Shown: piece by piece, positions 4,446 to 60,782 of the stretch
How positions within the stretch are numbered: the stretch's first letter is position 1
How the letters are laid out: every line of letters starts with the position of its first letter
Source of the DNA: Amphiscolops sp. MND2022
Taxonomy: Eukaryota
Assembly (NCBI GenBank): GCA_964187785.1
Contig: OZ076409.1
Location: 55,926,001-55,990,000 of the forward strand
DNA: 64,000 nucleotides
Direction: 5' to 3'
Notes under the pieces: generated by a model
Told to the model about the DNA's origin: nothing
Databases searched by the model: none
The model's input: the letters and a program-made list of their open reading frames with translations, nothing else
Program-made: the position numbers and the translations under genes

Positions 4446-4689
4446 TTTGTCAGATTAAAATGCTGTTTTGGAGAGAAGAATTTCAGTTAGAATGATGAGC
4501 AAAGTAAAATTGGGTTGAAATAAAGTTGAAGAAAATGTGCATTTTGTCAAGTTATCAAAGTTGGAACAAAGGTTGTGAGGGTGAAAAGAAAGGTCTGATC
4601 AGTCTGAAAGTTTTCTGTTGAATAAATATTGTTGGGTTCCTTACTCTCCTCTTTGGTTTGGGCTAAATTTAGCTGCATGACAACCAATT

Positions 4690-22800: not shown

Positions 22801-22949
22801 TTCAAAACAATGGAACTTCGACAGTTTACATCAATGCATTTTTGAAGCTATCGAAGGTTTTTGGGTTATTAAAATAAGCGTGAAGGGGTAATGCAATTAG
22901 AAGCAATTAAGACGTAACGATTACGTAATGAGTGGGGTGTTCAGTGTCA

Positions 22950-23083
22950 TCACCATGCATGTAGTGCCTCTTGTCTCCGCCGAAGATCCTCTTCAATGAC
23001 ACCAGTGTGCAGATTGGAGGGTCGTGCTGTCCCATGTTTGATACAATGCAAAATGTACTCCTGCCAAACTTCTTGACATTTGC
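22950..23083 (-). CDS. HELZ: HELZ-like terminal coding exon
   Basis: Acceptor GTGTTCAG, phase 1. Encodes GKCQEVWQEYILHC..LHAW*, matching the GxC..W..(F/Y)I..C segment that follows helicase motif VI. Confidence 0.8.
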
Positions 23084-29000: not shown

Positions 29001-32000
29001 CTATCCATTACATTGACTGCCAGTTAAAAGATACTCATTACATTTTATCGCGGAGAAATATTGCGTTGAAATGAAGACCTTCTTATACGATTTTTGCTTG
29101 TTCCAAGCGTTAATTTCTGCTATTTTGGACAAAAATATCGAACAATTAGGGTACTTTTTTGCCTGAATTGTCAAAACAGTCGTAGAGACAAACCTCTAAG
29201 TATTTACATTCATATAAGAATCTCTTATTAGTGAAATATTTTTATTCAAGAACAAAATGTGCTTTCGTGTTGGGGGGGGGGGGGTAATTCACAACAAGGT
29301 GTATCTCTGTTGGCAATTGTACACATGGTCCACTTCAAAAATTAGTATCCGGATTCAACTCACGATTATCTCCTTTTCTATTCAAGCCCTTAAAATCATG
29401 GCGGCGGTAAATAAAAACTTTTAAACCTCGCAAATTTGAGAACCCAAGGTCAAAATTGATACTCAATTCGCGTGTGATGTAACGCTATAAACAACAGCAA
29501 AATACAAAATACAATTACACAACCAACGAAATACAACACGCAAATACGTGATACGAAATGTCTCAACTCAATTGGAGAATGTCTCAACTCAATCACCTCT
29601 GCTCGGCTTAGATTCAAAACTGAACTACATCCAAGTTGAGAACAAACAAGCCGGGAACCGCCCCAGTCGGCGTACCGCTTTATGTTCAAAAACAGCAAAG
29701 CCTTGGAACATGCTCAAGATCAATTATTGAAAAAACTCTCAGCAATCTTACGAAAAACCCAAATTTGTGAACAAAACAACTGGCAAAATTCGTTCTCGCA
29801 GTATCAAAAAATCCAAAAGGGGCCTATGTTGATTTATGGAAGTGAACGCTACAGTGTGAGCTGATGAAAAAACGAGCCGGGAACCGGCTTAAAGCTCAAC
29901 AAAGCTTCTGAATTTGCAAAGAGGAAACTACTGTGAAAACTCATTTTACATTGCCAAAAAATACCCGAAGGGACACTCGACCACAGCTTTTGCCCTAACT
30001 GTAAACTATTGTCAAAAACAAAATTCATGGAATCTTTCTCGATTTTTTTTCCAAATCGTATAACGCCAAAAAAACCCGAACGGCGACCCTTTAGGCTTGC
30101 AAAAACACTTTTTCCAAACCGGGAAATTCCAAACGATGGAGCAGGACCCTTTGTTAAAATACGAAAATTTCCGAAAAAAAAGTCGCACATTGGGAAAAAA
30201 TACCCAAAGGAGACACCCTTTGGTCTTACAGCCTTTGCGAAACTAAAAAAATATTAGTTCAGCCGGAAAAATCCGAACAAAAATTAGTCACTGTAACAGT
30301 CTGCTTATTCTTCTAGAAAATGCCTGACTAAAAATCAGACCCTGCTACGTAATTCGACCCATGTTACACAGTAACTAAATATGGTGGGGCGCCACGAAGC
30401 AGAATATCCACTAAGAGCCGAAAAAGGTATACAATAGACTGGAATTTACATTGAACTACTTAACCTTGAGTGATAGCAATTGTCTTTGAACACATTTAGA
30501 AATTCCAGTCGGTTGAACTGTTTATTCAGGGCAAAAAACATTTGAACAGTCTGAATGGGAAACAAGCCGGGACCGGGCCAAGTCGGCGCCATATCTAAAG
30601 CTCAAAAATAACAAAAGGACTTCAAAGTGTCAAGTATTCATTTACAGTACCTGAAAAACCCAAAAGTTGCACCGAATTGGCGCGCCAGGGGAACGCTTTC
30701 GGATTTTTTTAACATCCATTGTTGCAAAACATTAAAACAATTGAAGGGGGATCCTTTAGGAAACTTTTTTTCTCGAAAAAAGTCTCACAATGCCGAAAAA
30801 ACTGAAAGCGGGCCCTTTGGTATTTTTCAGTATCCATTCTGTCACAAAACTCCAAAAAAAATTGAAGGGGACCCTTTTGTGGAAAAAACTTTTCGGTAAA
30901 AAAAGTAGCACAATACCGAAAAAAACTGAAATGGGGACACTTCAGTCTCGCACGGTATTGTATGATAGGCGGAAAAATGGAAAAACCATTTTGGTTCAGT
31001 TCCCTGGTCCAACAGGTACAATATAAAATTTTGCAGACTTTTTGGTAGAACTATTTTGGTCACTTCAAGTGTATCAAAGAAAACACTGACGAAAAGCGCC
31101 GACTAAAAAATAGGGCCCTCCGGGGCTCATTACTATTTCTGCTTTAATCTTTCATTAATAATAGAATCATATCTGGAATACCAATACACGCCTGTTTAAT
31201 CATTATCTAACGCACAATTAATCACTGTACAAGTTTACACCGCCTTTAATTCTTCTCGGACTAAAGAAAATCTGTATACCTACTAAGCGTAGACGAAGTT
31301 TCGCATTCGCATTTGAATGCAGGCGAAGCTTTCAACGAACAAATAATTAACACTCATTCGCTTCATCTCAATGACGCCAGAGTACGAATGCATAATTACC
31401 ACTCGCTCGTTCCATCGCACGAGAATTGAAATGTCGTCGGCAGCTTGAGAAATTCAATTCTCACGCGTAGTCACTGCCGAACAAAATATCTGAATTATTC
31501 AGTATCATGCGAAGAATCTTAGTGAAAATGTAGACATGTTGAGATTTCAATGATATTCCTGCTATCGCAGAAGGAACCAGAATAGAGTTCCGCTTCGTAC
31601 TATTTCAACAACATGCGTCCCAAAAATCGTGGCAAAAAGTTCAAAGATTGAAGAATCTTTAGCAATCCATTTTGCTGTTTTTCTTGAAATATCTGATATC
31701 TTATAAAAATGCATGCTACGAACATAACTTTTTTGCCATTGAATTTTGTGGAAGAAATACTTTTCAGTACAAAATTGCTTGAAGTATGACAATTAGTTTC
31801 TTAAAACAATAGAGAAAACTATTGCTTCATTCAAAACACTAGGCAACAAGCGAACAAAATACCACCAACCAAGGAATATCATTGTAGATGCGTCTCCCAC
31901 TACTATGATTTTGTTCTTGGCACGAGACATGGCCGTGTTGAGCAACTTCTTGTCAGATAGAAATGCAAAATCCACCTCTTCAAACTGCTCCTCCTCAGTT

Positions 32001-35000
32001 ATTTGTGCCAGAATGTCGTGACATCCCTCCAGAGTTCGCACTACACTGAGTATAACGACTCGATACTCTCTGCCTGAATTGCAAAAACATGCTTAGGAAG
32101 GACATTAGTGCAATTAAAGGTAGCAGTTCGCTTGATACTTTCAACCCAACTTTAACAATCGCGGATCTTTTGATATGGAAAACTGTCTACTGAAGTCTTG
32201 AACAAATATGTTTCGATTTTGATGATTTTTTGAAATAAAAATACACTCCTGTTAATTCATCGGGACAGTTCGCGACGCCTTTCCTAGAGACTCAAGTAAG
32301 TAACTGGTTGCTTTTTCAATTGTGATTTCATATTCGTGATATGAACCAAGCGCGTTCAAAAAACTTCAACAAACTGACAACATTGAATTCAAACTTTGTC
32401 TGAAACTTTTATAGAATTACAGGCGATTGGCGCATGTCGGGGTTTAGTACGAACAATATTTCCAAACAACACAGCGCGAAAACAGTCGCACTTTTTCTCC
32501 GAGAGCGAAAACGCACTGGTTGCCCACCGCGAATACGCTCAATGTATATCACGTCAATGTACTGTAGCAGTTTACACGCGTTTGATTCTTTTCAAACTAT
32601 GTCATTCTTTACTTCGTACGGCGAAACCTCATAACAGGCGACAACTCATAAAAATTGGGAAAAGCGTCAACTCGTATGAAGCGATAACTCATATCAGAAA
32701 ATTGATATCTATATCAGAAAACTTCTTCCGAATAGTTCATTAGATAATTACAGAAAATAAGACAATTGACAAGTAATAATTCGAAATTAGCAAATAGTAA
32801 CAAGTTTTCATGGTAAATATCAGTGTCATGGATAATCACTTCCTTACCACACCGTTGTCCAAATAGATGCGGAGAAAATAATTGTGGGTAGGGTGCCTAA
32901 TATGCGAAATAATTACAATTAAACTAAAATTTTTGATTGCATTTAATCTTAAATTGTTCTTGAAGTTGAATACAGGTATTTGTAACCTATTGGTAAACAT
33001 GATATAAGTTGTAGCTTTTTCCTTTTTGATACGAGTTGTCGCTATGCCCTGGTTGTCGTTAATTGCACAAAAAACTACCAAGCGCATATGACGTTTCGCA
33101 TTCGTATTTGAATGCAGGCGAAGCTCTCGGCGTACGAATAATTGAAATTAGTTCGCTTTATTTCATTAAACACTCGGCCTCGCTGCTACGGGAATTAAAC
33201 AAACTACATGAAGATTTGGACTAGGACGAAATTGGGTCGATACCAGCCTGGAGAAAAAACAAGCAATATCGATTTCTTTAACATTTCAGCCCACGCAGAA
33301 ATATTAACAATTAGAATCTACCTAACCTTGAACATTATTCACTCTCTGTACATCGATGCCAAAAATACCATTCGCCTTGAGGCGCTGTCTGATCAGCTTC
33401 ACCTGTTCGTGATAGGGAGCCAAAACACATATCTGGTTGGCCTCGAAATGTCCCCAGTGGTGAGTAGGCCAGTTGTACATGAGATCATTTATTTCGTTCA
33501 CTATCTTTTCACACTCTTCAGGATTGGTGTACGACATATCTTGACCTCTCACCATGTCTTTCCCTTGACAGTGAGAAAATACCAAGGGGTAGTGCTCTGA
33601 AATATAACCCGAAATGTATCATGGTGATCATCTTCCGTCTTCCTGTGTTAATTTTTTATTCTGAAAGAAAAATCTGGCATTTTTCTAATTCAACGCAAAA
33701 AGGCCTGACGTAATACGTATACTTCTACTGTTTGCCAGGCAGCCGGCCGTGGGTAGGAAGCTCAGTGGAAGTATTCTTAGAATTAAAACCTCAATCATAC
33801 GGATGTAACTCATTTAATACGGTATCAGTTTTGTACTAGTCATTAAGATCCATGCAAAACTACTGAATACAAGGGTACTCTTTTGGAATTTCATTCGGCA
33901 CCCTGCGACTATTTTGAAAAATTCAACAATTCCGAAGAGTCTCCACTACAGAATAGTTTGATATTTTGCAACCATATGAAAGAAAAACCTGAGGGCTTAT
34001 TTGCACAGGTGGTGAGTTTTTGAAATTTGACAAAATACACATTCGGAACTAATTTGAATGACTTTGATGTATTTCCAGCCTTGAGAGGGTTGCCTATTTG
34101 TACGTTACTGGTTTGATGGTGAATTTGACATCTTCAACTGGATTACGCGATCACGCCTCCGGGTGGCACTCAGCGGTTCAGAAAAGTTGATTTTTGTCTT
34201 TGCAGTCAATTATAAGAAAAATTGATTGTAACTGGACCGATGCAAATGACAATTGCAATCAATTGCCAATAAAAACCGGGTTTAGATACTAAATTCTTTG
34301 TTGTCAGATCTAAAATCATGTAATCTTTCCGTAAAATAACATCGAAGTAGACCCGGTAATTAAGGTAACGGTGAAATCAAGTACTTTGGTATATTTAGAT
34401 AATCAGAAGCATACATCAAACCTCTCGATATGGAGATTTTTTTCAAGGAATTTTTCCACATGGCAGAGCATGGTGAATCATGGCTGAAAACCACGATTGA
34501 TCATCCATGGCGAGAAATTCTGACATGGGCCATCCCTGATTTTCCATGGAACCCGAAATGGAAAAATCCGTTATATAGAATAGCGAATGTAATGTTGACA
34601 AGCTGTAAGAGTTAATGAATTTTGAAGCAAATAAGTTCTGCTATTATACCATTAGGTTATATTATCCTTCGGCTGAAGTAACGGCTACAAGTAATGAGAA
34701 CTGTTTATCTAACTAAAAAACTTTCTGTGAGCCGGATGGTAAAAATGGTGCCGCTCTAGTTAACGATTTCCATTTCCAAACAAGAATACGTTTGATTGAA
34801 TGATCATACTTTTATTGCAATTTTGATGATTTCTCATTAATACTTCAATTTTCATGCCTTTATAATATATATTCTTCCTCGTATGTATTCCTCGTTGCTT
34901 CCTATCAATGAAAATGCATTCCTCGTTGCTTCCTATCAGACTTCATGGGATTTCAGACACTGGTAAGATTTTTCCGTAGTCAAAAACTTATCGACAAGAA

Positions 35001-38000
35001 AACAACGTTGGAAAAATTCCAGCAGCAAATTTAAAATCGGCGCTGCCAAAAATTATTTCAACTACCTGGAGGAATGTAGTCGGTGCTTTTGGCGATCAAT
35101 TTGTTGTTAGCGTAAAAGAACGGACTGAGGAGGTCAAGAATGGGCTGCACGCATCGGTAGTTGTTGCAAAAAATGATGGAATTGTTAGCTATCATCTCGT
35201 TTCCCATATGATGGTACAGCAGAAACATTCTTTCCATCGGAGACAAGCAGTATTTGTATCGCCTAGCTGAAAGAAGGCAGATATTGAACACTACGAAGTT
35301 CTTGGAAAGATCATTCAAATCTCGGATTCATCTGAAATTTTGTAACATTAGAAAACTTGAGCTAAAAAACTAGCTGCTACAAATATTAGGCAGATGAATA
35401 AGAGACGATGGCTCAGAATTAATGTGACGAAAATAACTCAGTTGGTCGAATGAAAGAAAAACCCAATTTTCAAAGTAGTTATAACAATATTCTACCTCAT
35501 GCAAAACTACTACATGTAGTAACTTCACCTTAGTGCAAACGTCTGATCTCTTTTGACACTGTATACTTCGACAACCTACAATAATGCTCTCCATGTTGGC
35601 TTCTAGCGAAAACAAACCAATTTTAGAGAAAACAGGGGGCGCTTGTTGCGCTGGGTCGCCTGCCATTATGATGCGTGTCTTGCTAGTGGCAATTCTGAAA
35701 GGGATCAACGTATCCACTTCCAGACACTGCCCAGCTTCGTCCAGAATTATGTGAGTGAAGGGCATCATGGCTGCCTTGTTATTTGCCATCGGCCGACATC
35801 CGGCCACTGTGCTGACCACGACGTCATACTGGTCCAGCTCCTCAATTTCAGGTATTCTGTAAAATTAGCCAAACATTCACATTCAGACAAATTACTGGCA
35901 AAATGTACTTGGAATGCACTTTTCAAGAACGAAAACTTTTGTTGGCTCAAAGAACTCGAGAGTCGACACAGGAACCATTGAATGTTTTTTTAGTGAAGTG
36001 AGTTACACTAGGAAATATCTGAAGACAATGTAACCATGAAACATACCAAAAACAAACAGAATATCTCTATCACTTCATGGGTCAATTTTGTGCTTTATGC
36101 GCTTCTTCAAGTTCTGTGTAACAAAAATGTCAATTTCTGACCCTAGAAAAATTTTTGGAGCAGGGAAAAATACCTGTAGGCAGTCCGATCTTCGTTGAGA
36201 AGACAATACTCCAAGACAACTTTGTCATAGAAGTCGGGTCTTCTGAAATCCGAGTTTAGACGTAAGATCTTTCCTCTGAGAGTCGGGTCCACTTTGCTGA
36301 GGTGTTCCCGAATGTATATATCAGCAGCACTGAAAAGATTGAATGGTGGAAGAGTAGAAGACTTGTTTTTAATCTGCTAAGTTGAAATCACTATATTAAA
36401 ATTTAGACGAAAACCTGCTGAATAAAATGAAGTCAAAATTTTGATTGTATGTCTCAGCCTAGTTGTAATACAATACCCTATAGTACCCTAACTGAAAAAA
36501 TCAAAAACCCAATTAAGAAATATTTTTTAGTCGCTCAGTGCCGAAAAAATCACAGGCAGACCAGCTGACCTAGTCTAGCTTTGCAAATGTAAAGAAAAAC
36601 TTTAAGCCAGTGGGGGGTTCAAATCCACAAACTCCTCCTCCCCAGCCACTGCCACCATACAAATCACTCACACTAACTATTGCGGTGTGCGATGGATTCA
36701 TAGATACAGTCACGAGTGGTCTTGAAAGTCACTACTATAGTCTGCATTTTCTATCGAAAGCGCCGACTAATACGCAAATGTCCTGGGGATTTAGAACAAG
36801 CCAGCTGCTGCTCAAGTCCCGTTTTAGGTTCAGAAAATATAAAATGTTTGATATTCAGTAAATGCTTTTCAAGAAAATTCGGGAAGAAAATTAAGGATTT
36901 CGGTCAGATGTGTGACTGCGAGAGCGATAGCGTTAGCGACAATTCAGCATTAATTAGCGATAGAGATAGTTAGTGACAAATTAGGGCGTTAGCGAACATT
37001 TTCATTCGCTAAACAGAATGCAATGCCGTTAAGAAGAGAACGATTGAAAATATGATTCTGCTGAAAAATATTGGTCCATTGGTGCCCAATCAACATTGAC
37101 AATTTTGATCCTGAAAGTTTTGGCTGCCTTACCCAGTACAGCTTCGGTCGAACGGTGGTTATTCAGTGTAGCCGGAAATGTGCAGCACCCAAGGCGAACT
37201 AGACTTTGCTCAAATTTGCTCATTTTCAAAACTTTCCGAAATTGAAATGAATATCTTGAAAATCAGTTTTTTAATTAGCGATAGCGTTAGCGAACCCATT
37301 TTGTAACGATAGCGATGAAATCGAGCCATTAGTGATTAGCGATAAAATGGTTAGCGACCACACCTCTGATTCCGATTCATCTGAAATTATCGAAAAAACA
37401 AGCAGGGAACGGCACAAGCCGACGCCCCCTTAAGGCTGAAAAAATAACAAGGACTTCAAAGCGATAAGTATTCTCTTCCATAGTACCCGAAAAACCCAAA
37501 GGGGGCTTCAAAGAATTGAACCGGACCCGTTAATCTTGTCGGGTTTTGTATGGTACGCTAAAAATGTCACACCCGAAAACGACACGCAAATTTCTCTACC
37601 TATATTCCATTAAATACCAGAAACATAATAACGTCGGTTATAATAAATAGTACAAAACTTTCACTCTACTGAATATATTATATTCGAATTTTATATTTTA
37701 TATACCCGCATCGAGATTGTTTCCCCATTTGTGAACCGAGTATTCGGTATTCTTCATTGCAAAAATGGGAAACTGCAATAAGGCCAATCAAAAACGCGAA
37801 CGAAATAGTCATGACGTAAAAATTGAAATGACAGACAGAAAGCGACAGAAAAAGTGGCAGGAAGATAACTTTTGAAGAAAACGGAAAATAATTAAACTTC
37901 AATGCAAAGTTGAATTCCAAATCATCTATATAAATCAAATCAAATTATTTAAGAATAAAAGTGGTTTATAGTTTCATCAATACTTCACAATCCTATCAAT

Positions 38001-41000
38001 TTGTCGTTCGATTTCTGATCGAGTTGAAAAAGTATCATCGATATCGAAGTCTGTGTTGATTCCTAATTTCTTATACCATGGTAGCTTTTCCTGTTGCAGA
38101 GTATCTAAGTGCGCTTGTTTTCCACTGAGAGCGACCGGTGCTATTGGGCTGAGATATCGATTGATCACGTCATCGCTCAATTCGTCATCTAAAGAAGGCG
38201 CTTCTCGTATCAATTGACAATCTATTTCCATTTTGGCTAATAAGGTTTCTCGTCGTATGTCGGCTTTGGCTCGGATTCGAGACAACTGAATGTGATGTTT
38301 GAGCGAATCTTGAGCTCGCTGGAAATGCGCTTCTTGCTCGTGTTTCGACATGGGTCGCAGCGAGAGGCGTTCTCTGAATTCTTGGATTGTCTGAAACAAA
38401 ATGTGATACAACATACACAAGCTCAAATTTAAAGTATACTGCATTAAAATTCCACTTCTATGGGAACAGCTTTTATGATAATCAAAATAAACTGCCTGAT
38501 CATCAAATTTTTCGAGATGAATATCTTATAAGGATGGACTATTTCAATTTTGAAAAAGCTTTGAATATTTCCCAATAACACGGTTTGGAGAATGTATTTA
38601 CATTTAATCGAGCGCTTAATCTTCAATTCGAACTTCCTGCAAATGTGGATTCATACTAACTTGTTGCAGCTCGGCCCTGCGTTCTTCACTCAACCCGTCA
38701 GCACTCCAGATTGTCTTCACGCCTCTCAACATTCTCCTCTGGTCAACTTTTGCCAAACATCTTCTAATCCATCTTTGAATGGTAATGGCACTTTTCACTT
38801 GTTTCATCAAAACACGTTGATGGAAAAAACTTTTCCTCAACTTAAAGCCCCGCCACAAAGCCTGGATGTTAAGAGCTGCCTGGTTTTCGGTTCTCTGTAA
38901 AAACTTGTCCACTTGTTTGGATGGTACTTGCTCTATGAGGTACAGATGTTTTTCTTTCACTTCCCTAGCTCCTCGGTGGCGAGCGATTGTTAGCTGTAAT
39001 TTCAAGTCATTTTCCTCCAGTTTCCGCCTTCTTGCAGCGTCTTCTTTCATCAGGTTTTCTTCTTCAACGTTTTCTTGACTCTTTTGCTCAGCTTTCAGTT
39101 TTGCCAGATGTCTGCGTGCATGGAAACTACGATAAACTCGTTGAATGACACGAGCAGCTCTGTGGAAGCGTTCCATTTCTTTCATATGTTTCGTTTGGGA
39201 ATCTAGAAAGTTCAGCAGCTTCTGCTGTTCCTGCCCAAATCCTTTGCCAGTCCATCTTGTGATGATGAATCTGATACCTAAACAACCAAATGTTTCTCAC
39301 TGATTACTAAATCAAACAATCGATAACACATTTAATCTTCAACGACACGTACTTTATATCAAACCTATTGCTTCGCTGAGGCACGTCAAATCAAAAAAAT
39401 ATTCTGCAAGTATACTATTCAATAAACTTGAATGGAAAAAATGAATATGGTGTTTAAAAACTGACGAGTGCTAACCTTTGTACCGTGTGAAAAACGCGTC
39501 TCCAGTTTTGGGGTAAATCTGAGTGAAAGCCACCAAAGTGCGGGTGACAGCGGCTGCTACAACAGTGGGGGAATCAAACTCCGATAACTTGTAGACCATT
39601 TCATCGAGCAGTGCATAAAATTTGTCTTCAGGTACTTTTGTAAATTCTTCCCTCCCACAAACTTGACCCAGTCTCATGATGACCTCTAGAACTGTTGTCA
39701 GAGTATCAGGCTCGTCAGTTAGGAGCATCTTCAACAGGTACGCATTTTCCAAAACACTTCGAGCCAGCTCGTGGTTCCGGTCCACTACCTGCGAGAACAA
39801 AATTTTCTATACAGGAGGTTGAAGTCAACTCGATTCGCCTTCTTCGAAAAAATCTTAGAGGCTCTTTTCTGTTCCCACCACCATTTTTTCGGGAAATTAG
39901 TGATTTTTTTTTAAAAGAAGACTTGAATACAAACCAGAGACGTTCAATTTTAGTCCATTTCCAGTGTGACAATTTGGAATTGAGATAAAAAAATTGTTCA
40001 CACTATTTTTCATGAAGTCATTCATTTTTGATCAGAAAATTAACAGTTCCTGTTTTGAGTCCCAAAAAAACGGTGAATACGATCAAAATTATAGTTAAAA
40101 TGTGTGAAAAATGTTTTATTCAAACAAAAAATTATTCCAATAGACGTTAACTTCCTGTTATGAATAAAGGTTTCACTTTTAATTAGGCTAGTCTGCTGTT
40201 TTTAATTTATTTCAAAACTTTTGGTGGGGGCAGTAAAGAGCTCTTATTGCTATTGAATATTTCATGTCCAATTTCTTCCAAAGTTCGTTCAAAAATATTT
40301 ATATTCGAATTTGCATTCCACTTTAATTTAGACTCAAATTAGGAAGCAGGTTTTCTGAAAAAAATATGAATCACTAAGATGATTTCTTAAAAACCTTTGT
40401 TAGTAAAATTTTCTGGATTAGTGACAGTTCAAAAATCGCAAAAATCGACCCAGAAAATTCAACTCACTTTTTCGATGACATCCACTATTGTTTTGAAACT
40501 AGCCAATAGGGGTTGCTTTTGAGGAGACACACTGATAGCCAACATTTCATATCTTGTTTGAATTCGTCTGCACAGAAGCACACAATTGTTCAACACCTTG
40601 GGTTCTAACTGCGTCCGAATAACATTGACAACATCAACTAATTTAGGCACGTATTTCTGGAAGTACTGCTGCAAAAATTTTGCCAGTTGCGCACCTACTG
40701 GCCAGCTGCCCTTCACTCTGGAATAATCGCAAGCCAAGCACATAATACAAGGCTCGATAAGTTCCGATTCCCAAATTTTCTGCATGACGAAATCAGCGTG
40801 AGGTCCTGATCGATGCGAAGTGAATAAAGATTCGAGGTCGATAAGAACAGAAGCAATTTCTGTGTCATCGGAACAGTCAGCAGCCTCTGAGGCTATGTCC
40901 ATGATTCTTTTGCCAATGTGATCCCGAATTTGGGATTCCACTGAAACTGGAGGAGACGAAGAGGCCATTGCTTCCTTCTTTCAACCAGTTTTCCGGTGAG

Positions 41001-44000
41001 TTGAATCACTATGAAGACTTTTTAATCATAGCAACAAGAATTGAATAAAGAGTGGAAAGAAAGTATTGCAATCTGAATGATTACAAGATAGACATTGTAG
41101 TGTGTAGAAAATAAAATGAATGTACAATACCACACAGACTGTGCCAGCAAAAAGGCTGCATGTTAAAGTACGATGCACGTGCTATTTTTTGGCACACCTC
41201 GTTCAAATTATCAGACTGTGGATTGAAAAGCAAATAAAGCAGTAGATACTTGAATACACAGTTTTCTCAAAAATCGAGACGAACGCCGTAGCTCATGGTT
41301 AGTACATAAAAGCAGGAAAACGGCTAGGGTTGCTTGACTCATACAAGGTGAACTTTTCATTTTTCTCCATACTTTTCAAACGTTGTGTAAAAAATGATTT
41401 TTTAAAATTGATAGCTATTTTTAGTCGGCGCTTCATGAAGTGAAACGCGACTATTATAGTGACTTTTTTTTTCTATCCACACGAACTGACCAAAATAGTT
41501 CTACAAAAGTTCTACAAAATATTATTGCACCAAAATGCACTATTTGGTCTAGCGAACTGAACCAAAATGGTTTTACCTGTTTTTCCGCGTAACATACCAA
41601 ACCGGGCGAGACCAAAGAGTCCCCCCTTTCAATTTTTTTCGGCACTGCGAGACATTTTTTTTCGGAATTTTTTTTTTCGAAATTTTTTCCCCAAAGGGTC
41701 CCCCCTGCATTTTTTTGATGTTTTGCGACAGAATGGATGTTGAAAAACCTCAAAGGGTCCCCCCTTTTAGTTTTTTTTCGGCATTGTGAGATTTTTTTTC
41801 CCGAAAATGAAAAAAAAATTTTTTTCTTCAATTTTTTCATGTTTTGCGACAGAATGGATGTTGAAAAACCTCAAAGGGTCCCCCCTTTCAGTTTTTCGGC
41901 ATTGTGAGACTTTAGCGCGCCAGGGGCTCGCGCTAGCGGGCCCCGGCGCGCCACTCGGTCCATTTTTTGAGTAATTTTTTCAAAAAAATTTTCGATTTTC
42001 GAGTACTGTAAAAGAATACTTGACACTTGGAAGTCTTTTTGCTATTTTTGAGCCTTGGATATGGCGCCGACTTGGGCCGGTCCCGGCTTGTTAACTGTTA
42101 CACTATATAGTTTATAAATTGCATTCGGCATTTGTGTTAAATGGAAGAGAAAACAAACCCTTACTAGGAACTGATACTAAGGCAGCTGGTTAAAAGTATG
42201 ACAAAATTTTGTACTCTACTATTTCGGAGCAGTCACGTACTTGCGAAACTTTAATTTGTTCGAGAAAAAATGTAATGAAAAAGTCTGATGAGTCAGCTGG
42301 ACTCACTATCGCGAAGTGTTATGACCACAACTAAACTCAAATTAGTTTGACTTAAAAGGCGATGGGCAGTACAAACAAGGAGTGGTTTTTCTGTCGGACA
42401 GTTCCGAAAATAACACTCAAATTCCTTTTAATGAAAGAAGTATGTGAAAGTACAAATGGGAGGCCATTCCGATCAATTCGCAACATGTAGAATTTTGAAT
42501 TTTGCCACTCGACACAAAATTGTCACTTCGACTGGATTGGGAAAAACACGACAAAAAATCACCGCGATAGTCGCGTTTCATTTCATTGAGCGTCGACTGA
42601 AAATATCAAAAACCAAACCAGAAAACTTCAATTTTAAATAATTTTGTTGGGAGTAATTGAGATTGTATGACTCATGATTTGACTTATATCGTAATGTTTC
42701 ATTCATTATATCTATCTGTTCTACTGTGTTTTACTGCAATAAACGGTAACCAAAACAACAGATTGAGACTTAACTAAATGGAATTCGAAAAAGACCCAAA
42801 AAAACTACTGGTGTTCAATGGACATCCAGAGAACTATTTGGTCAGGAAAACGAGGTTTTTATCCTATCTCGAGGAGAAAGGAGTTACAAAAGAGTTTGAC
42901 AGTTTGAAAGGACAAGCTCGACAGAAAAACAAAAACAGTCTCTCCAGAGAAATTACCATGCATCATGACAAAACATTGCAGATGATCATCGCATTGGATC
43001 CGACTGATGGTGAAGTGGTTTGGAATCATCTAGAGGTTACGTACGGAAAATTCAAAACAAGCCAAATTTTGGTTATCAACCACGAAAGAGTTTTTGGAAT
43101 TCAAAGTACAACCAGGTGAGATTTTACTTGTTTCTTTGAACAGACTAGATGTGATCATTTACAAACATCAATCTGCGAACGAAAATGTGTCTGAAAACAT
43201 CAAATTAGCTGTGATTTTGAAAGGTTTGCCACAAGAAATTGATTCTTTCAAAGCTGCCGTACAATTTCAAACAAAAGCTTATAAGGAATTGAAAAAAGAC
43301 AATTATTGAAAATTCGCTTACATCTGAAAAATTACAACCAGTCGATGTTAAAATGGAGCCGACAGAAATCGCTGCAAGAGCTAGTCTCAAACGCTTTTAT
43401 GAAAAAGTACCAGACTCAGCAAAAATTTGGTCAGCTCTCCACAAGTACTTTTGAAAAAATTTCATGTGAAAACTGTGGAGAAAAATCACAAAATAAGTGA
43501 ATGTTTTGCACCTGGTAGATGAAATTCAAACACAAGAGCGAAAATGAATCAGGATTTGCATTTGGACATGCTTTATCAGTGTCACAAAGTAAAGCTGGGG
43601 AAAACAGCGGAAACTATCATTGACAGTGGTTGTACGTCCCATATTTTGACTACCAAGAAGTACTTTACTGAATTCAATGAACCGGAAAAGGAGTTTTTCA
43701 TATCGAATGGAGATCTTTCGCGTCAAAAAGTAGGAACATATGGATCTGCTAAAATACCTTTAAAGGACAAAAACGGGCGATATTTCCAACTGCAACTGGA
43801 AGAAGCAATTTTTTTTACCCCTTTTCACTACAATCTGCTTTCAGTGAACTGCTTAACAAAAGCTGGGAACAAAGTTGTTTTTGATCAGAAAATAAACAGT
43901 ATTTCATGTGGAAACACATTTTTGGAATTGTTCAAGCATAACAACTTTGGTTTTCTGAACGAATCAGTTAAAACGCAGTCTGATGGAATTTGCCTTATTG

Positions 44001-47000
44001 GTTTACAGCAATAGCATCAACGTTTTGAACATTTGAATGAGGAATGACTACGGTCTATGGAAAACAAACAATTAGTTGAAGGATTGAACATTGGGGATAA
44101 TAATATGGATCACTCGGAGGCTTGTTCGATAAACAAGGCAACGAATGAAGATGTCAACCATATACCCCGAGCAATTTCTGAAAACAAACTAGATTTAGTT
44201 TAGAGCGACATTTGCGGTCGTTTTTCTAAATTATTTCTTGGGGCTGTGTACATAATTTCCTTCATCGAAGACTTCCTAAAGTAAGTTTGCCAAAGTGTAC
44301 TTCATGAAACAGAAAAGTGAAGCAGCGGAAAAACTGGAGTTTTTGGCTTTTTGTGGAAAAGAAACACCCAGAGAAATTAGGAGTGACAATGCTCTGGAAT
44401 ACAAACGCAAATCTTTTGCTGAACGTTGAAGGAAAAACAAATTTCATCACTGTTTTCGGCATCTTATAGCCCTCATCAAAATGGAGTAGCTGATCGCTAC
44501 TTGAGAACACACTCGAATATGTCTCGGACCATGCTGAATAGTTCAAAAATGGATGAACGTTTCTGGGTGAGAGCATTTAATACGGCAAATCACATTAAAC
44601 ACATTAAAAACATCCACGAAAACAATAAACAATGGAATGACTTCTTTTGAAATGTTTTTCGGAAAAAAACCCAAGTTTTTGGGTGTGAAGTATACTACAA
44701 AGTACCTTTGTACCAAAAAACTCAATCCGCGAGCTGAGACAGGAGTTTTCGGTAGGATACCAGAAGAACAGTGAATGCTACATCATTTTCAACTCGGAAT
44801 ATCAGTCATTCTTTTCCACCAGCAATGTGAAATTCAACGAGAAAGAGAATTTGTCGAATCACAGACGCTGAATAGTACTCATTGGCCTATAGGACCAACT
44901 GATTTAGTAGAAATAGTGCAAACTTCAAATGAAATGGAAAATACGAATACAACTCACAATGAGAAGAATATTCCAACATCGGACAATGCCTTTTCTGAGA
45001 AAAGCTTTGAATCTTCCACCGTAGAACAATCAAAAGGCAAGTTATAGACAATAAAATAACTTCCACCGGGAACGACAATCACTGCGTCAGGAGAAGTTCA
45101 CGACAAAGAAATGCACCTATCAGATAGGGTGATCTTATCAACTTACCAGAAAACTTCACTGAATAGTACCAGAGAATCTGATCCAACAGCCTATGAAGAA
45201 GCTATAGACTCAAAACACAATGGATCGATGCAACGAATAAAGAAATGGAATGGCTAAGTGACCAAATTTGGGAACTTGTAGGAAGACCAGTGAATTCGCC
45301 CATTATCCAAAGGAAATGGGTTTTTGCAACAGAAAAAGGACCAGATGGCGAAATCACACGCTTCAAAGCACGTTTTGTGGCAAAAGGCTACAGTCAAAAG
45401 TATGGAAAAAAGTATGAAGAAACATTTTTACCCACGATTTGATATGTTACGATAAGAACGCTTTCAGCTCTTTCTGCTAAGTTAGATTTGAAAGTGGCTG
45501 TTTGACGTGAAAACTGCTTATCTGAATTCGCCTTTGGATGACAGAGAAATTTACATTGAATTACCGTTGGGTAGCAAGTACTCGGGATACAAAGTTGATC
45601 CGTTACTGAAAAGTCTTTACGGACTGAAACAATCTGGAAGATGCTGGAATTCATTTCATGAATGGCTGGTAAACTGTGACCTGCAACAATCAATAATGGA
45701 TCCTTGCTTATATTTCAACGCTGAAATCAGATCAATCCAACAACACAGTAGTTTCCAAACTTTCCGAAACATATACTTTAGAAGCTCATGGAAAGATGCA
45801 GTAATGGAAATCTGCAGTAAAGGATGGAAATCAAAATAAACAAGGATTTATTTTGTGTTTATCATCAAAAGTACACACATTGCAAAATATTGCTTGGAAA
45901 CGACTAAAAGTGTGCAAACACCAATAGAATCATTGACTAAAGCTACTTCTAATGACGAGTTCTTTGACGAAAATCAATATAGAAAATTACTTGGCTAACT
46001 TCAATACCTGTCAAACGTATCAAGACCATATATCACCTTTGCAGTAAACTATCTTGCTCAATTTGCTTCGAAACCAAGTTCAACACATTTTACGGCTCTC
46101 AAAAGAATTCTGTGTTACTTTATGGAAACAAAAGATTTTGCGATACGTTACTCAAAGAATTGGAACGGTCTCGACATTCACTCATTTGCGGGCGCTGATT
46201 GGGCAAATGATCAAATAGATAGAAGTGTCTCTGGAACAATAGTCAAGTTGGATTACTCTGATTTTTGATTCTCCGGTTATATGGAAATCATCGAAACAAA
46301 AAACAGTGGAACTGACCACTTGCGAAGCCGAGTATATGGCCCTTGCCTTGTGTGTTCAGGAAACGTCAATGGTCGTAAATACTTTGGAAGCAATTGGACG
46401 AAATTCAATAGTCAATATTGATAGTGACAATTTGAGTTCTAAGCATCTTGTAGACAACCCTATTATCACCCAAAGATCGAAACACATTGACACAAAATAT
46501 CACTTCTTGCGTGAGTTCTTCAAAACCAACGAATCAAAATTGCATCATCTGGAAACTCAGAAAATGCAAGCTGATGATCTCACAAAACCCCTTGGCAAGT
46601 CGAGATTCATCGAATTCAGAACAATTTAGGGGGCGTGTTGGAGTGATTGAGATTGAATGACTCATGATTTGACTTATATCGTAATTTTTCATTCATTATA
46701 TCTATCTGTTGTACTCTGTGTTTTACCGCAATAAAAGGTAACCAAATCAACAAATTTCAAAGTGACTATTAAGGATCCAGATATGAACTTTATTACACCC
46801 TTTCTGGATAACATTTTTCTTGAAAATGTTTAAAAGTGGCAGTTATGCATTTACTGCTTAAGGACCATAATTTCTCGACAAAAATGCAAAACGCCAACAT
46901 CATAAAACGCCTTATTTTCTTTCAGAGAGACTTTGGTTGAGAGCCAGACTACAAAAAAACAAACAAAATCGAGACAAACTATTTTCTAACCGTAGGAAAT

Positions 47001-49944
47001 GTTCAGCATTTTGATGTTCAAGAAAAGACCTAAAAACTGGATGATATCATCGGTTGTAATGACAAAACAATGCATTGACAAATCAACAAAAGTTATTTGC
47101 GCATTCAAGCAGACATTTTCAAATTTGAACAATCCGACTGGGTCAGAAGTTTCCTCAGTTACACAATTTACAAGTCAATCAAACATGTAACCAAATATGA
47201 AGAAACAATGAGGATAAAAATTCTTTGAAATGCCTTTATCGAGATTATTTATTTACGAAAAATTTGACAAGTTTTTAACAAAGGCCCGCTGACCATAAAT
47301 TTCAACTCATTTGGCAAGTTTATTCTTTCCAAATTCCTATAATTGTTGACAAAAAAGTGGTTTATGTAAGTCATCTTCTTGATAGTTTAAACTTGCTAGA
47401 AAAACCAAGACCATGGAAATTAATAAAAGTTTCTCTAAATCTAGATGAGTTCAAAACCAAGCGCAGAAAACATCAAACGAAACCAGTTATATTCAAAAAT
47501 GAACGAGAAACGAGTACTAACCTGTTGGTCCAAGTACAGACAAGAACTCTATTCTCTTTATTGATCTTGTTAGCGGCCAGCAATTGGACGATGAGATTGC
47601 CGATGGCGAAGGTCTTACCCATTCCAAAGGGCCCATACAACAGCAGAGGAGGCAGAGGGTGGTCCTTCCTTTCTCTAGGAGACACAAGGGCCATCTTCAT
47701 GAACTGCTGCTGACGTTCATCCAGTTGTGCGAAGTTTCCAACATTCCTTAAAAAATGGTTTAAAAACACCCAACATTCAATATGTAATAATTTATGAAGC
47801 AAATGCGATTATTAACGTAAAGTAAAATCATTGTAAGCATCGTTCAGGTTCCCAAGAACAAACAAATCGAAACACTAACTTTGGCTGGATTTTCAGCGAC
47901 GCCTGTTTCACAAGGCCCATGTCGTTTTTGGGAAACAGATGCATCAACATCTGGTCATCAATAGACTCCAAATTTTGTGCCAGCTTCGAGAATTCAACTT
48001 GATTTAGCTTGAACTGGACTTCGGCATCCTCAAAAACCTGTTTTTCAAAAGTTTCTGTATAATAGTCGTCTGGTAAGAGTCCATAATCAGCCATCCATTG
48101 AGCTGTATCAGGGGTTATTACAACAAAAAGTCTGTCTTTTTGACGCCCATCGAATGCGATTCCGTTATGGTTGGGATTTATGACCATGCATTCAAAAACT
48201 AAATCCTCATCGGCTATTGCCTTGGGACGAAGCCAAATTGATTCAAAGTATGACATGTAGAAAAGAATTCGACCGCGCTCAGTATCCAGAGAAATATTAG
48301 CATCAAGGGGAACTTCTCCGAATAGCAACTCATTTCGACGTCTATCAGGGTAAATAGTGGGCAGCCCACCCGCTTGATCGTCGCCGACTTTTCTCCTGAT
48401 GGTGACATTTGTACGAACGTTGAGCTGTGAAAGCACTTCTTGGCATTGGAAACGCTCAATGTTCATCAACCGGGTCAAGATGTCTTTGTACTCATACTTG
48501 TCGAACGTCCATTTCAGCGGATTCGTCATGTTCATGAAATCGGCAGTAATCACTTCAGACGCCAAATCCTTCATGGGATATTTTTTCAACAATTCTTTGT
48601 CCTCCTCTGTCAGATTGCGGCTTCTGATAACCTGCATAAAAACATCAAAGGAAAATATAATGAATACGACCCTTTTTGTAATGGGAGCAAAAAAGTGAAA
48701 AAATCTTCAAAAAGAGCAGGTTTGGCAAACGTGTTATTTTTGAAAATAAACACTAATTTTTATCAAAACAAGCCGGGAACAGCATTAGTCAGCGCCCTGC
48801 TTAAGGCTCAAAAATAGTAAAAGGACTTCAAAGCGGGAAGTATTCTCTAACACAGTACCCGAAAATCCAAAAGGGGACCAAATTGTTGCAAAATGTCAAA
48901 AAAATGAAGGGGGACATTTTGGAGACATCAAAAAATTTTTGAAAGTCTTACAGTGCCGAAAAAATCGTCCCGGTTTTGTATGTTACGCTAAAAAGAAAGG
49001 AACTATTATGGTTCAGTTCCCTGGGTCAAATGGTACAATTTGGCCATTTAAAATTTTGTAAAACTTTTTAGAACTATTTTGGTCAGTTCATGTGAAGTGG
49101 AAAAAAGCCACTATTATAGTCGCGTTCCACTTTTTGAAGCTCCGAATTGCCTGAAACGAAAAGCCAATTTTCCGCTTTTCTACTGCGAGCTGTCCCCTCA
49201 ACTATCAATGAGTAAATCCGAGTGTCGAAAACATGCGTTCCAAGCCAGATGACGAGGAATTCGCGCTCACAATAGGTCCTGCCAGTGAAAATAAATTTGA
49301 ATTGAAACGTCCCTTATTACCCGATTTCCATCAAGCCTCTGGGGACAGATGTGCATAAATAACTTTCGCCTAAAAGAAAAAATAAATCGCCAAAAATAAG
49401 AAAAAAATAAATAACATGTTAAATAATGTGCCAACCTTGTCCAAGAGCAGAACAAAAGTCCATTAATGGAAACAATTTTGGAAAAAGACGAAAGGCGAAT
49501 GCCTCTTTTTCCATCAGTTTTAGTATTAATTTTGACAGAATGGTTGTAAAAGTCAAGCAATGGAAAAATTAGGTGATCTTTTAGGAAAAAACTTACCTTG
49601 ATGTTTCTTTCGTTCCAAGTGTTGTCTGAGAGCGCTTTGAGTTTGACTTCCTTGAAATCTTTATGGAGCTTATCACTCAAATCGTGCAGTCCTACATCGA
49701 CGACCAGCTCAATTTCCAAATAAGGAAGTTGACTGAAATCGAAAATGATAGACTGCTTAAAGGTTCCCATGATGTTGGACTTGAAGTGAACGTAAAACGT
49801 GAAGTTGTTAGGAATATTGTCCCGGAAATCATTATCATTAACAATCTGGTTGATGAAATCGTCCCGGTCGAGTTGTGTCATTTTGATGCAGAAATGTGAT
49901 CTATGCTTGTCGTGCCAAAGGGCTACTCGTTTCAGAGAATTTTC
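22950..49944 (-). CDS. HELZ: HELZ-like SF1 (UPF1/DNA2 family) RNA helicase, 9 exons in window, 842 aa plus stop, 5' end not found
   Basis: Exons 49597-49944, 47880-48631, 47522-47746, 36174-36329, 35618-35856, 35066-35266, 33327-33596, 31870-32073 and 22950-23083, all GT-AG with compatible phases (2529 nt). Motifs GPFGMGKT, TWTNSAADIYI, DEAGQ, GDPAQ, NYRC, VQGREY and LNTAMSRAK. HELZ versus HELZ2 orthology is not resolved. Confidence 0.85.
23296..23392. repeat. Short tandem repeat, ~30-bp unit, ~3.3 copies
   Basis: TTCGGCGGTTGGAATGAATGTCGGAA(A/T)TGA repeated head to tail. Confidence 0.9.
23573..23815 (-). mobile_element. DINE-1/Helentron-like family 1, truncated copy
   Basis: AACAAGCCGGGAAGGGCCCAAGTCGGC..ATATCTAAGGCTC terminus. 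Confidence 0.65.
25333..25920 (+). pseudogene. Maverick packaging ATPase (A32/FtsK-like)
   Basis: MNKIIFTTDRVFMSVVGPSGWGK(fs)TQLI Walker A; LLNFDD Walker B; RHRGI..IKHNLFHQ; SPRDSQQ. Confidence 0.8.
26810..27415 (+). pseudogene. Maverick integrase, C-terminal part
   Basis: SDKGT, FAEHNNRSLKK, RVNRLTGLAP, KPKFKEGDPVRV..FTKGYKQNYTDEEF, NPPTY; stops and frameshifts. Confidence 0.8.
27420..28240 (+). pseudogene. Maverick minor capsid (penton)-like gene
   Basis: STASM..FKDNTLASFKNQLPQNISLQGDWRVA at the N-terminus; FIYKDLIDYQNTGDVKAPVIR..LQYKK at the C-terminus. Confidence 0.65.
28250..28612 (+). pseudogene. Maverick small basic core-like protein
   Basis: YY.KQ..RQRGSGFG..IGRVALP followed by a K/R-rich tail; internal frameshifts. 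Confidence 0.55.
28616..28790 (+). pseudogene. Truncated Maverick capsid-family (PZ/PY-like) gene N-terminus
   Basis: MLPNVLP..SLDIFER*..IGP..LECEVVGDRNNF, then abrupt truncation. Confidence 0.5.
29645..30334 (-). mobile_element. DINE-1/Helentron-like family 1, divergent subfamily
   Basis: AACAAGCCGGGAACCGCCCCAGTCGGCG terminus; CACTGTAACAGTC..GACTAAAAA at the other end. Confidence 0.6.
30561..31110 (-). mobile_element. DINE-1/Helentron-like family 1 copy
   Basis: Both termini present (AACAAGCCGGGACCGGCCCAAGTCGGCGCC; GCGCCGACTAAAAA); close to the copy at 41418-42092. Confidence 0.75.
31107..31570 (-). mobile_element. Helentron-like non-autonomous repeat, family 2
   Basis: Near-copy of 51231-51760; partial copies at 19833-19990 and 33088-33306. 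Confidence 0.7.
31870..32073 (-). CDS. HELZ: HELZ-like exon (motifs V-VI)
   Basis: GREYRVVILSVVRT..FLSDKKLLNTAMSRAK..VVGD. Confidence 0.9.
33327..33596 (-). CDS. HELZ: HELZ-like exon
   Basis: HYPLVF..SYTNPEE..ICVLAPYHEQV..VNNVQG; AG/GT borders. Confidence 0.9.
35066..35266 (-). CDS. HELZ: HELZ-like exon
   Basis: SPMERMF..NYRCVQPIL..FY; AG/GT borders. Confidence 0.88.
35618..35856 (-). CDS. HELZ: HELZ-like exon (Walker B, motif III)
   Basis: FTHIILDEAGQ..IMAGDPAQ. Confidence 0.92.
36174..36329 (-). CDS. HELZ: HELZ-like exon
   Basis: (S)AADIYIREHL..YCLL completes motif Ia, which is split by the 11.2-kb intron. Confidence 0.88.
36905..37368. mobile_element. hAT-type MITE with degenerate 8-bp TSD
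   Basis: TIRs CAGATGTGTG / CACACCTCTG; flanks ATTTCGGT and ATTCCGAT; subterminal GCGATAGCGTTAGCGA repeats at both ends. Confidence 0.6.
37977..40968 (-). CDS. IQCB1: IQ calmodulin-binding motif-containing protein 1 (nephrocystin-5), 4 exons, 614 aa
   Basis: Exons 40468-40968, 39476-39788, 38661-39277 and 37977-38390 (1845 nt, phases 0/1/0, GT-AG). IQ motifs AARVIQRVYRSF, AALNIQALWRGF and AITIQRWIR. Family signatures DYSRVKGSW, WTGKGF and LPWYKKLG. Confidence 0.9.
39857..40243. mobile_element. ~390-bp TIR element in IQCB1 intron 1
   Basis: TIRs AGAGGCTCTTTTCTGTTCCCACCA / TGGTGGGGGCAGTAAAGAGCTCT; homologous to 10137-10528. Confidence 0.65.
41022..41035 (-). promoter_or_regulatory. Candidate RFX X-box upstream of IQCB1
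   Basis: GTTGCTATGATTAA, 54-67 nt upstream of the ATG; one strong half-site and one degenerate half-site. Confidence 0.4.
41418..42092 (+). mobile_element. DINE-1/Helentron-like family 1, best-preserved copy
   Basis: TTTTTAGTCGGCGC..CGACTA at the 5' end; internal ~120-bp tandem units; GCGCCGACT-GC-rich hairpin-CTTGTT at the 3' end. Confidence 0.8.
42645..42760 (+). repeat. Copia 5' LTR (116 bp)
   Basis: Direct repeat of 46636-46752; 7 substitutions and 2 indels by eye. Confidence 0.95.
46636..46752 (+). repeat. Copia 3' LTR (117 bp)
   Basis: Follows the PPT; contains AATAAA; followed by the TSD. Confidence 0.95.
47522..47746 (-). CDS. HELZ: HELZ-like exon (Walker A)
   Basis: LPPLLLYGPFGMGKT..RVLVCTWTN. 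Confidence 0.92.
47880..48631 (-). CDS. HELZ: HELZ-like exon
   Basis: Long open exon with YK..L..L..IE, ELLFG, EVQFKLN and LFP; AG/GT borders in phase with its neighbours. Confidence 0.85.
48767..49147 (-). mobile_element. DINE-1/Helentron-like family 1, older copy
   Basis: AACAAGCCGGGAAC..AGTCAGCGC terminus and CACTATTATAGTCGCG end; a further remnant lies at 37397-37562. Confidence 0.65.
49597..49944 (-). CDS. HELZ: HELZ-like exon (most 5' exon found)
   Basis: LKRVALWHDKHRSHF..FKSNIMGTFKQSIIFDF; acceptor TTTTAG and donor GTAAGT. Confidence 0.85.
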
Positions 49945-59100: not shown

Positions 59101-60782
59101 TAGCTTTATCACTGAAAAATTGGCCGATGCATTGAAACTAAACAAAGATGATGCAAACTTGAACCTGAGTGGCATCGGTGGCAAGGCAAAAGATGTCAAA
59201 GCAGGTCGTGTAAAATTTGTGTTTCAATCTGGGTCGAAACAAGCCAATGTATCTGCGTACATTTTGAAACAACCAACAATAGAAAACCAAAAAAACTTAT
59301 GAAGGTTCCTACTACACCGACGAATATCTCTTTGGCTGATCCCAACTTCAATGTCTCCAAACCAGTCGACATTAGGTGCGGATGTCTTCGTAGAATTGAT
59401 GAAAATTCAACGCCAGGAGAATTCTCCTGGTTTGTTTTTACGTAAACTCTTTGGACGGGTGTTGGTTGGAAAACAAAACGCATCAACAAATTCCTTCATA
59501 TGTTGTCATGCCTCAATGGACGAAACTTTGAGAAAGTTTCGGGAAGTTGAGACCTCACAGAAAGTTGCCAACTGAAAAAGAAATACGATGTGAGAAAATC
59601 TCAACAAACCCAAGAATTGTCGACAATCGTTTCGTAGTAAGTTGTCATTTAAATAGGACGCAATTTCGGGTACAGCTTAACTCAAGCTCAACGCAGATTC
59701 AGTTCACTGGAACGTCGGTTAGACACTAATCCCGAATTAAGAAAACGGTATGGTGCTTTCGTTTACGAATTTGTTTCACTCGACCACATGGAAGTCGTTC
59801 GTGAAAGAGATCAACAAACCTGATAGTGAAGTTCATTATCTACCTCATCTTTGTGTCTTTAAAGAAGACTCAACAACAAAGAATTAACGTGTGGTCTTCG
59901 ATGGTTCTGCGAAGACTTTCAATTGACTTTCACTGAACGAAAGTCTCATGGCTGGACCAGTCGTTCAGAATGATTGGTTTACTATTTTGAATCAATTCCG
60001 TTGCAAGCCCATGGCGCTATCAGCGGACATTGCCAAAACGTACCGTCAGGTTGAAATGACGGGATGCAACTGACGAGGTCTTCCATCGTCTTCTGTGACG
60101 CAGCAAAAAAAGATGAAAAAGTGAAACATGCAATTGAAGCGGGCAAACAACGGAATTGGTTCTGCTTTCCACTCCACACGCTGCCTTAAGGAAATTGCCA
60201 ATCGTACAAACAACCTTAGAGTCGCTGACCCACTCAAACATACTTTCTACGTTGATGACTTCTCGGTGGTGAGAACACCATCACAGAAGCACGTAAATCG
60301 ATGAAAGACTTATAAACAGAACTTTTCTTTTTCGGGTATGAGCTCAGAAATGGGACTTCAAGTCACCCGGAGTTACCAATGGAGCTACGCTACCCCTCGA
60401 GCTCCGAGAAACAACAGATTAACTTGCGCTTTTCTCAGAAGAATACAAAGTTCGAGTTTTTGCATTCATCTAAAGATTAATCAACATTCTGAAGAAGGAT
60501 CGCAGCACTTTCGGAACATCTTCAACGACTACTGATTTATCTAACCCCAATGTCGAATGAATTCCTTCGAACAAAAAAGTTTTCCCGGAAGAATTCACTT
60601 CGTTGAAAAAGCGAGAAGAGCTATCGGAAACTTCAAACATGCGTAATCTGAAACCTAAGTATGCTGAGATTGAGGATCTGAGAGTAGGAGGTCGAATGGG
60701 CAATTCCAATTACATCGAGTTGAAGAAATTTTCAATCCTAATCCCAAAAGATTCGCCTCTTGTTTCTCATAACTAGACACTT
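52649..60782. repeat. Tandem segmental duplication, units 52649-56850 and 56851-60782
   Basis: Paired near-identical ORFs offset by ~3937 bp (53193/57130, 54103/58040, 55144/59081); junction ..TAGACACTT|CTTAACTTTTGTATGCC. Confidence 0.95.
53650..56850 (+). mobile_element. BEL/Pao LTR retrotransposon, decayed, 3'-truncated duplicate
   Basis: Gag with CPVCKK.H knuckle; protease LLDNGSQLSFIT; RT VVFDGSAK..LSLNE..GP and FYVDD; broken at 56850. Confidence 0.9.

Follow-up and report, generated by a model that had tools for sequence, protein, structure and literature searches.

A four-exon IQCB1 gene lies on the same strand within a helicase intron of Amphiscolops sp. MND2022

The host helicase and its 11-kb intron

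The window analysed here is a 64,000-nucleotide stretch of the genome of Amphiscolops sp. MND2022 (assembly GCA_964187785.1, contig OZ076409.1, positions 55,926,001 to 55,990,000 of the forward strand). Much of it belongs to a gene for a UPF1-type helicase that is read from the minus strand. In order of transcription, its exons in and near the intron of interest, and its later exons, are:

49597..49944, minus strand: helicase exon; more exons lie upstream, past the window, to window-equivalent ~73305
47880..48631, minus strand: helicase exon of 250 aa, single copy in the genome, 83% to relative P0002
47522..47746, minus strand: helicase exon with Walker A (GPFGMGKT) and the first half of motif Ia; donor CAG/GTTAGT, phase 2
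36330..47521, minus strand: host intron, 11,192 nt, phase 2; ~7.1 kb minus the Copia element
36174..36329, minus strand: helicase exon with the second half of motif Ia; acceptor TTTTCAG/T
35618..35856, minus strand: helicase exon; carries motif II (DEAG) and motif III
35066..35266, minus strand: helicase exon
33327..33596, minus strand: helicase exon, AAA_12
31870..32073, minus strand: helicase exon, motif VI (AAA_12)
22946..23083, minus strand: probably the final helicase exon, preceded by an intron of 8,786 nt; closes the frame

The Pfam domain AAA_11 matches exons on both flanks of the 11-kb intron and AAA_12 matches two later exons, so the gene has the core of a UPF1-like SF1 helicase, with its Walker A and DE motifs. 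The best solved relatives are Sen1-type helicases. The gene outgrows the window, and its upstream exons were taken from adjoining genome stretches. Our model of 15 exons encodes 1,699 aa, and two exons that were found later would bring it to about 1,800 aa; several of the upstream boundaries are ambiguous. A search against longer proteins gave no match, a search of representative proteins gave three (one true relative and two apparent chance repeats), and the Atlas matches all scored under 0.8.

Among the UPF1-like helicases, we file this one as HELZ-like only. The region before the core presumably resembles that of HELZ. By eye, several Cys/His motifs can be seen in the upstream exons, where Pfam gave no zinc-finger match. 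The best model ends about 60 residues past motif VI and does not include the long C-terminal half with PAM2 that is typical of HELZ, although there may be an alternative last exon that we did not see. The RNB domain and second helicase of HELZ2 are absent from the model, and none was seen by eye among minus-strand ORFs down to position 15100. As described in excerpts of two reports, HELZ and HELZ2 have CCCH- and C2H2-like zinc-finger motifs ahead of a UPF1-like SF1 core (PMC6769256, PMC10516660). The host helicase shares the core but, in our model, differs from both proteins in the features named above.

The donor after 47522 and the acceptor at 36329 join AG/T to give a serine, which restores motif Ia (CTWTN-S-AADIYI). 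The mid-codon split of this motif had been noticed in an earlier sequence-only reading of the window, and it is confirmed here. Judged from the open frame across the join, and from the lack of a paralogue of either half, the exons on the two flanks appear to belong to one gene.

An intron of 11 kb is ordinary for this gene, as it has two other long introns (~15.6 and ~8.8 kb). We recognised no second nested gene among the longer ORFs of those two. The ~15.6-kb intron is filled by two near-identical tandem copies, of ~3.9 kb each, of a decayed plus-strand element (52800-61600). By its motifs this element looks BEL/Pao-like; three of its ORFs had no Pfam match. The 8.8-kb intron contains decayed plus-strand ORFs (24200-28700) whose motifs resemble those of Polinton genes; five of them had no match in Pfam.

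The nested IQCB1 gene

The 11-kb intron contains these features:

42645..46756, plus strand: decayed LTR retrotransposon of the Copia type, antisense to the helicase and to IQCB1
41415..42093, no strand assigned: multi-copy interspersed repeat, up to 28 overlapping matches in 204 kb
41072..41090, minus strand: sequence that resembles a strong 3' splice site, 104 nt ahead of the start codon of IQCB1; a candidate spliced leader (SL) trans-splice site or 5'-UTR acceptor
40468..40968, minus strand: IQCB1 coding exon 1, ATG at 40968
39476..39788, minus strand: IQCB1 exon 2; its splice to exon 3 is backed by relative P0011
38661..39277, minus strand: IQCB1 exon 3, with IQ motifs; single copy in the genome
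37977..38390, minus strand: IQCB1 exon 4, ends with the stop codon

The coding sequence of IQCB1 (40968-37977) thus lies entirely within a single host intron (47521-36330) and on the same strand. Its four exons join into a frame of 614 aa plus a stop codon. The three introns (679, 198, and 270 nt) all have GT-AG ends, with phases 0, 1, and 0. The predicted protein aligns over 539 aa with a fish protein named IQCB1 (P0001; 25% identity, E = 4e-41), and its C-terminal half has IQ motifs (PF00612, E = 4e-13). With similarity along its full length to a named IQCB1 and with C-terminal IQ motifs, the predicted protein can be assigned to this family, although P0001 was the sole match among longer proteins and so the identity has one named homologue behind it. 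Its role is presumably ciliary, which we carry over from the IQCB1/NPHP5 family. The sequence-only reading, which proposed a same-strand, four-exon, 614-aa IQCB1 and a Copia element in an 11.2-kb helicase intron, is therefore upheld by the splice sites, the frames, and Pfam, and both of its gene names hold.

We also found five shorter relatives of IQCB1 (including the window's own ORF), and spliced forms are seen in relatives only. The spliced relative P0011 crosses the junction of exons 2 and 3. P0009 crosses that of exons 3 and 4 and has the same C-terminus, and the ends of exon 3 are identical in P0007. For the junction of exons 1 and 2, the fish protein, a distant one, is the sole sequence that reads across. 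On intron positions in human IQCB1, the literature, in excerpt, yielded two splice variants only. Downstream of the stop codon, the signals that we found within 1.6 kb were variants such as TATAAA and ATTAAA, with no AATAAA among them.

Upstream, just 446 nt of unique DNA separate the ATG from the multi-copy repeat. The Copia element beyond it has LTRs of ~120 nt (~42645-42764 and 46636-46756, 91% identical), an AATTT target-site duplication, and fragments of gag, protease, and reverse transcriptase in broken reading frames. The intron also contains short inverted repeat pairs (53-99 nt, 75-81% identity), one of which flanks IQCB1.

One copy of each gene, possibly on two haplotypes

When we searched the genome with IQCB1 exon 3, the 5' region of IQCB1, and two upstream helicase exons, each had one match. 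The downstream exon with motif II had one other match, which is 31% identical and lies in an unrelated intronless helicase ORF. Because of these single matches, neither half of the helicase has an alternative partner, and IQCB1 is not a spare copy. The possibility that the two halves come from different paralogues, which the sequence-only reading had named as a way for its claim to fail, can be rejected, as there is no paralogue that could supply either half.

For misassembly, we turned to public contigs. An exact look-up of ten exon ORFs found seven of them (two upstream helicase, three IQCB1, and two downstream helicase ORFs) in a public collection, and for every one of the seven the longest contig measures 826,891 bp. 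This contig may share source data with the assembly that we analysed. A second contig, of 198,227 bp, has a variant of one upstream helicase ORF, which differs at 9 of 269 aa, together with a variant of one downstream helicase ORF, which differs at 1 of 139. This suggests that a second haplotype also links the two halves. Each of the IQCB1 ORFs, three in all, occurs on two public contigs. We matched contigs by their equal sizes alone, so they point to linkage rather than to gene order or strand. Nevertheless, because two public contigs each appear to carry both halves of the helicase, they argue against a misassembly, the other weakness that had been foreseen. There are no N bases in the window, and we found no long direct repeat flanking IQCB1.

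We found no related locus among metagenome contigs with IQCB1 exon 3 or P0002. The exons of relatives lie on contigs of 39,287 bp (helicase, P0002), 350,554 bp (P0007), and 153,014 bp (IQCB1), whose organisms may differ. That P0002 and P0007 are on different contigs neither shows nor excludes linkage in relatives.

Single-step mis-splicing is not expected to yield a fusion protein

Because the two genes share a strand, the host transcript would contain every splice site of IQCB1. We joined these sites in silico, and all 31 of the single-step joins that we built reached a stop codon within 1-51 codons. The set comprised six joins from the 5' part of the host to internal exons of IQCB1 (1-51 codons), 22 to every AG within the 480 nt that precede the start codon of IQCB1 (3-51 codons), and three from IQCB1 donors to the next host exon (2-24 codons). 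We therefore do not expect chimeric proteins, and reject an in-frame fusion of helicase and IQCB1 for these joins. The earlier suggestion of chimeric transcripts stands in so far as such RNAs may form, but not as a source of fused protein. The out-of-frame phases are not evidence of selection, as chance alone would often produce such a mismatch.

We then ranked the splice sites of the interval. The host donor after 47522 scores highest of all its donors. The host acceptor at 36329 ranks 40th of 593 AGs, while the three acceptors of IQCB1 rank 1st, 15th, and 17th and the 41072 site ranks 7th. (The acceptor ranking is from a small home-made model that was trained on 16 local sites, which include most of the ranked sites.) As the host acceptor ranks below those of IQCB1, site strength alone does not explain correct splicing of the host. 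For recursive splicing, none of the 24 AG/GT sites in the intron pairs a strong acceptor with a strong donor.

Spliced leader trans-splicing and the start of IQCB1

The most relevant extra mechanism, and one that the sequence-only reading missed, is SL trans-splicing. We searched the genome with the leader of Symsagittifera roscoffensis, an acoel in which, according to an excerpt, 30.2% of genes are trans-spliced (PMC9911081). The leader followed by GT occurs 1,270 times, as compared to 0 times for the reversed control. Judged by this leader, the animal would likely be an acoel of, or close to, that species. Three SL RNA gene copies that we folded formed stem-loops and have a U run that resembles an Sm site. 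SL RNA genes form a large tandem array (G000:C1:16229106-16424069), mostly with a 904-bp period, and also occur elsewhere in the genome.

In a second pattern, found in 36 copies, the leader is fused to other sequence. Among the 24 of these that we examined, one is the 5' end of an intronless retrocopy of an XRN-family gene:

G000:C7 ~10870350: young XRN retrocopy with the leader at its 5' end
G000:C12 ~51521025: XRN parent gene

The retrocopy is 98-100% identical to the spliced parent and has an open frame of 604 aa. Its leader ends precisely where the parent has its TTTTCAG acceptor, which lies 11 nt ahead of the ATG. It is a fossil of trans-splicing, and it shows that trans-splice sites look like ordinary acceptors. 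The organism thus has both SL RNA genes and trans-splicing.

Most of the 24 copies begin repeated sequences, on several contigs. The ORFs that follow several of them have either an IGASSL motif or a finger of the PHD-like kind, and are presumably LINE ORF1 types. These elements may be trans-spliced and then, on reinsertion, keep the leader at their 5' end, and the terminal AG of a reinserted leader could serve as the next trans-splice site.

For IQCB1, the candidate site is the acceptor at 41072. Of 10,000 random positions, only 331 have an acceptor of this strength within 104 nt. Alternatively, the 41072 site could be the end of a 5'-UTR intron, with candidate donors at 41373 and 41598 as its partners. 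The 41072 site is followed by an upstream ORF of 6 codons, whereas the nearest acceptors of three other ciliary genes, BBS5 (two copies), B9D2, and IFT20, are free of ATGs (at -5, -21, and -83). We found no retrocopy of the 5' region of IQCB1 in the genome. By our judgement rather than by any calculation, the chance that IQCB1 itself is trans-spliced falls somewhat short of even.

The two copies of BBS5 (G000:C5:67475856-67482110 and 67649278-67655727) are ~173 kb apart and have near-identical scores but different upstream DNA. They are either a recent duplication or an uncollapsed haplotype.

We also looked for a promoter. The RFX X-box consensus gave 1 match where 0.81 were expected and 16 where 16.05 were expected, and a half site at -67 is likewise at chance level. 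Equally good matches occur in the DNA upstream of the helicase, and those of the three other ciliary genes are no better. We therefore reject the X-box as evidence for an IQCB1 promoter, and our scan upstream of IQCB1 found no promoter signal.

How might both genes be expressed?

We propose that the sole detected IQCB1 gene is transcribed from its own promoter within the intron and that the helicase RNA is spliced from 47522 to 36329 over it. We give this reading a probability of about 0.6. The anatomy, the single copies, the frames, and the animal's trans-splicing machinery are what we observed; the path of the RNA is what we propose. Transcription of IQCB1 would start within, or close to, the 446 nt of unique DNA that precede its ATG, perhaps with a leader added at 41072. 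In the helicase pre-mRNA, the sites of the three short IQCB1 introns would pair with their own nearest partners, the 3' end of IQCB1 would be read through, and 47522 would be joined to 36329. Helicase RNAs that are mis-spliced or end early would have early stops or would be without the greater part of the helicase core. The nesting would therefore cost helicase mRNA and create no new protein. As IQCB1 has retained three introns, it likely arrived as DNA and not as a retrocopy.

A different use of the leader would be for IQCB1 to have no effective promoter and to be cut from the helicase pre-mRNA by SL addition at 41072. If so, then the choice between cis- and trans-splicing would decide, for each transcript, whether it yields helicase or a cilia protein, and SL trans-splicing would make same-strand nesting of a multi-exon gene tolerable. 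The leader copies and the fold of the SL RNAs, the XRN retrocopy, the frequency of trans-splicing in the acoel with this leader, the rarity of so strong an acceptor, and the small amount of unique DNA before the ATG are all consistent with this. However, where a donor lies upstream in cis, one expects the acceptor to be cis-spliced rather than trans-spliced, according to passages of a study of flatworm and nematode operons (PMC8629364). The host's strong donor lies 6.4 kb upstream of 41072, and this join would reach a stop after 21 codons. The expectation speaks for a start of IQCB1 transcription somewhere downstream of the host donor. Also, splicing at 41072 would leave an upstream ATG in the UTR, which is not the case for the acceptors of the other ciliary genes, and trans-splicing does not imply that there is no promoter. 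Overall, excision of IQCB1 from the helicase transcript seems quite unlikely.

The nesting might instead have been kept because it is useful: in ciliated cells, transcription of IQCB1, or its 3' end, could truncate or repress the RNA of the helicase, in line with the interference or cell-type exclusion that the sequence-only reading raised. Hosts can be driven into exonisation and cryptic polyadenylation by the genes nested in them (PMC3192792, PMC11694760, in excerpt), and the host acceptor is weak relative to those of IQCB1. But we found no sign that the nesting is conserved: P0002 and P0007 are on contigs of different length, which neither shows nor excludes linkage. The out-of-frame phases, being common by chance, give no sign of selection. 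We consider such coupling unlikely. Finally, the arrangement could be an artefact of the assembly, or IQCB1 could have recently inserted into the helicase and split it into non-functional halves. The region is rich in repeats and the intron has inverted repeat pairs. Yet both halves of the helicase are ordered and in frame, contain no stops, and have retained their splice sites; on a variant haplotype, too, both halves appear to share one contig; there is no direct repeat on the flanks; and a misjoin would need two precise junctions. We find this the hardest to believe of the explanations, with a probability that we would put very low.

Comparison with other nested genes

The idea that nested genes are mostly antisense to their hosts, on which the sequence-only reading relied, fits Drosophila, where 71.27% are on the opposite strand and 28.7% on the same strand (PMC3814207; this and the other studies compared here are represented by excerpts). 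It fits less well elsewhere. In mammals, over a tenth of genes host a nested gene, with a slight bias to opposite orientation (PMC11694760), and in the ctenophore Hormiphora californensis many of the 2,357 nested genes are parallel to their hosts (PMC8527503). Same-strand nesting is thus less rare than had been implied. In a dinoflagellate, 25.2% of genes are nested (PMC12584245).

IQCB1 is in a smaller class. Of the same-strand nested genes in Drosophila, 72.53% have a single exon, and those with several have a median of one intron (PMC3814207). By our own multiplication of 28.7% by the multi-exon share, about 8% of the nested genes in Drosophila are both same-strand and multi-exon, so this arrangement is uncommon but not exceptional. 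As with IQCB1, the Drosophila cases are coding genes within one host intron, with mis-splicing as the predicted cost. IQCB1 differs in that it has three coding introns and is the sole detected copy of a conserved gene. The locus cleanly illustrates the rarest class of nested genes (same strand, several introns, and the sole copy of a conserved gene), and it is also a trap for gene prediction.

Truncation of hosts by nested genes is documented (PMC3192792), and in mammals nested transcription can shorten host isoforms (PMC11694760). Mammals differ from our case in that they do not have SL trans-splicing. Neither IQCB1 nor HELZ occurs in the text of the mammalian nested-gene catalogue (PMC11694760). 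Hormiphora is closer, as it is an SL trans-splicing animal with parallel nesting, and 1,109 of its nested genes are flanked by transposons, as is IQCB1 (PMC8527503). Whether parallel nested genes have their own promoters or are excised from the host transcript is a question that the passages on Hormiphora raise and do not answer. With a trans-splicing animal and a candidate site, the IQCB1 locus offers a test case for it.

Operons in Macrostomum lignano and C. elegans are similar in that a downstream gene is freed at an unpaired acceptor (PMC8629364). In those operons the gene follows the 3' end of the upstream gene, typically ~100 bp away, whereas the candidate acceptor of IQCB1 is inside an open intron with a donor upstream. 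Our literature search returned no paper on nested genes in acoel genomes. Among the titles from our searches on nesting or operons together with trans-splicing, none concerns release of a nested gene by a leader, although a nematode precedent is possible.

Other features of the window and genome

On another contig, there is an intronless SF1 helicase frame of 1,678 aa (G000:C3:42175811-42180844, minus strand), which looks MOV10/Armitage-like by its motifs and which adjoins ORFs that are presumably Polinton-like. Within the window, the minus strand of 1-4454 has a Ty3/Gypsy-type element with a gag zinc knuckle, reverse transcriptase, and RNase H. On the plus strand, a frame of 377 aa without interruption (13920-15053) corresponds to a PHM-like copper type II monooxygenase and has both Pfam domains.
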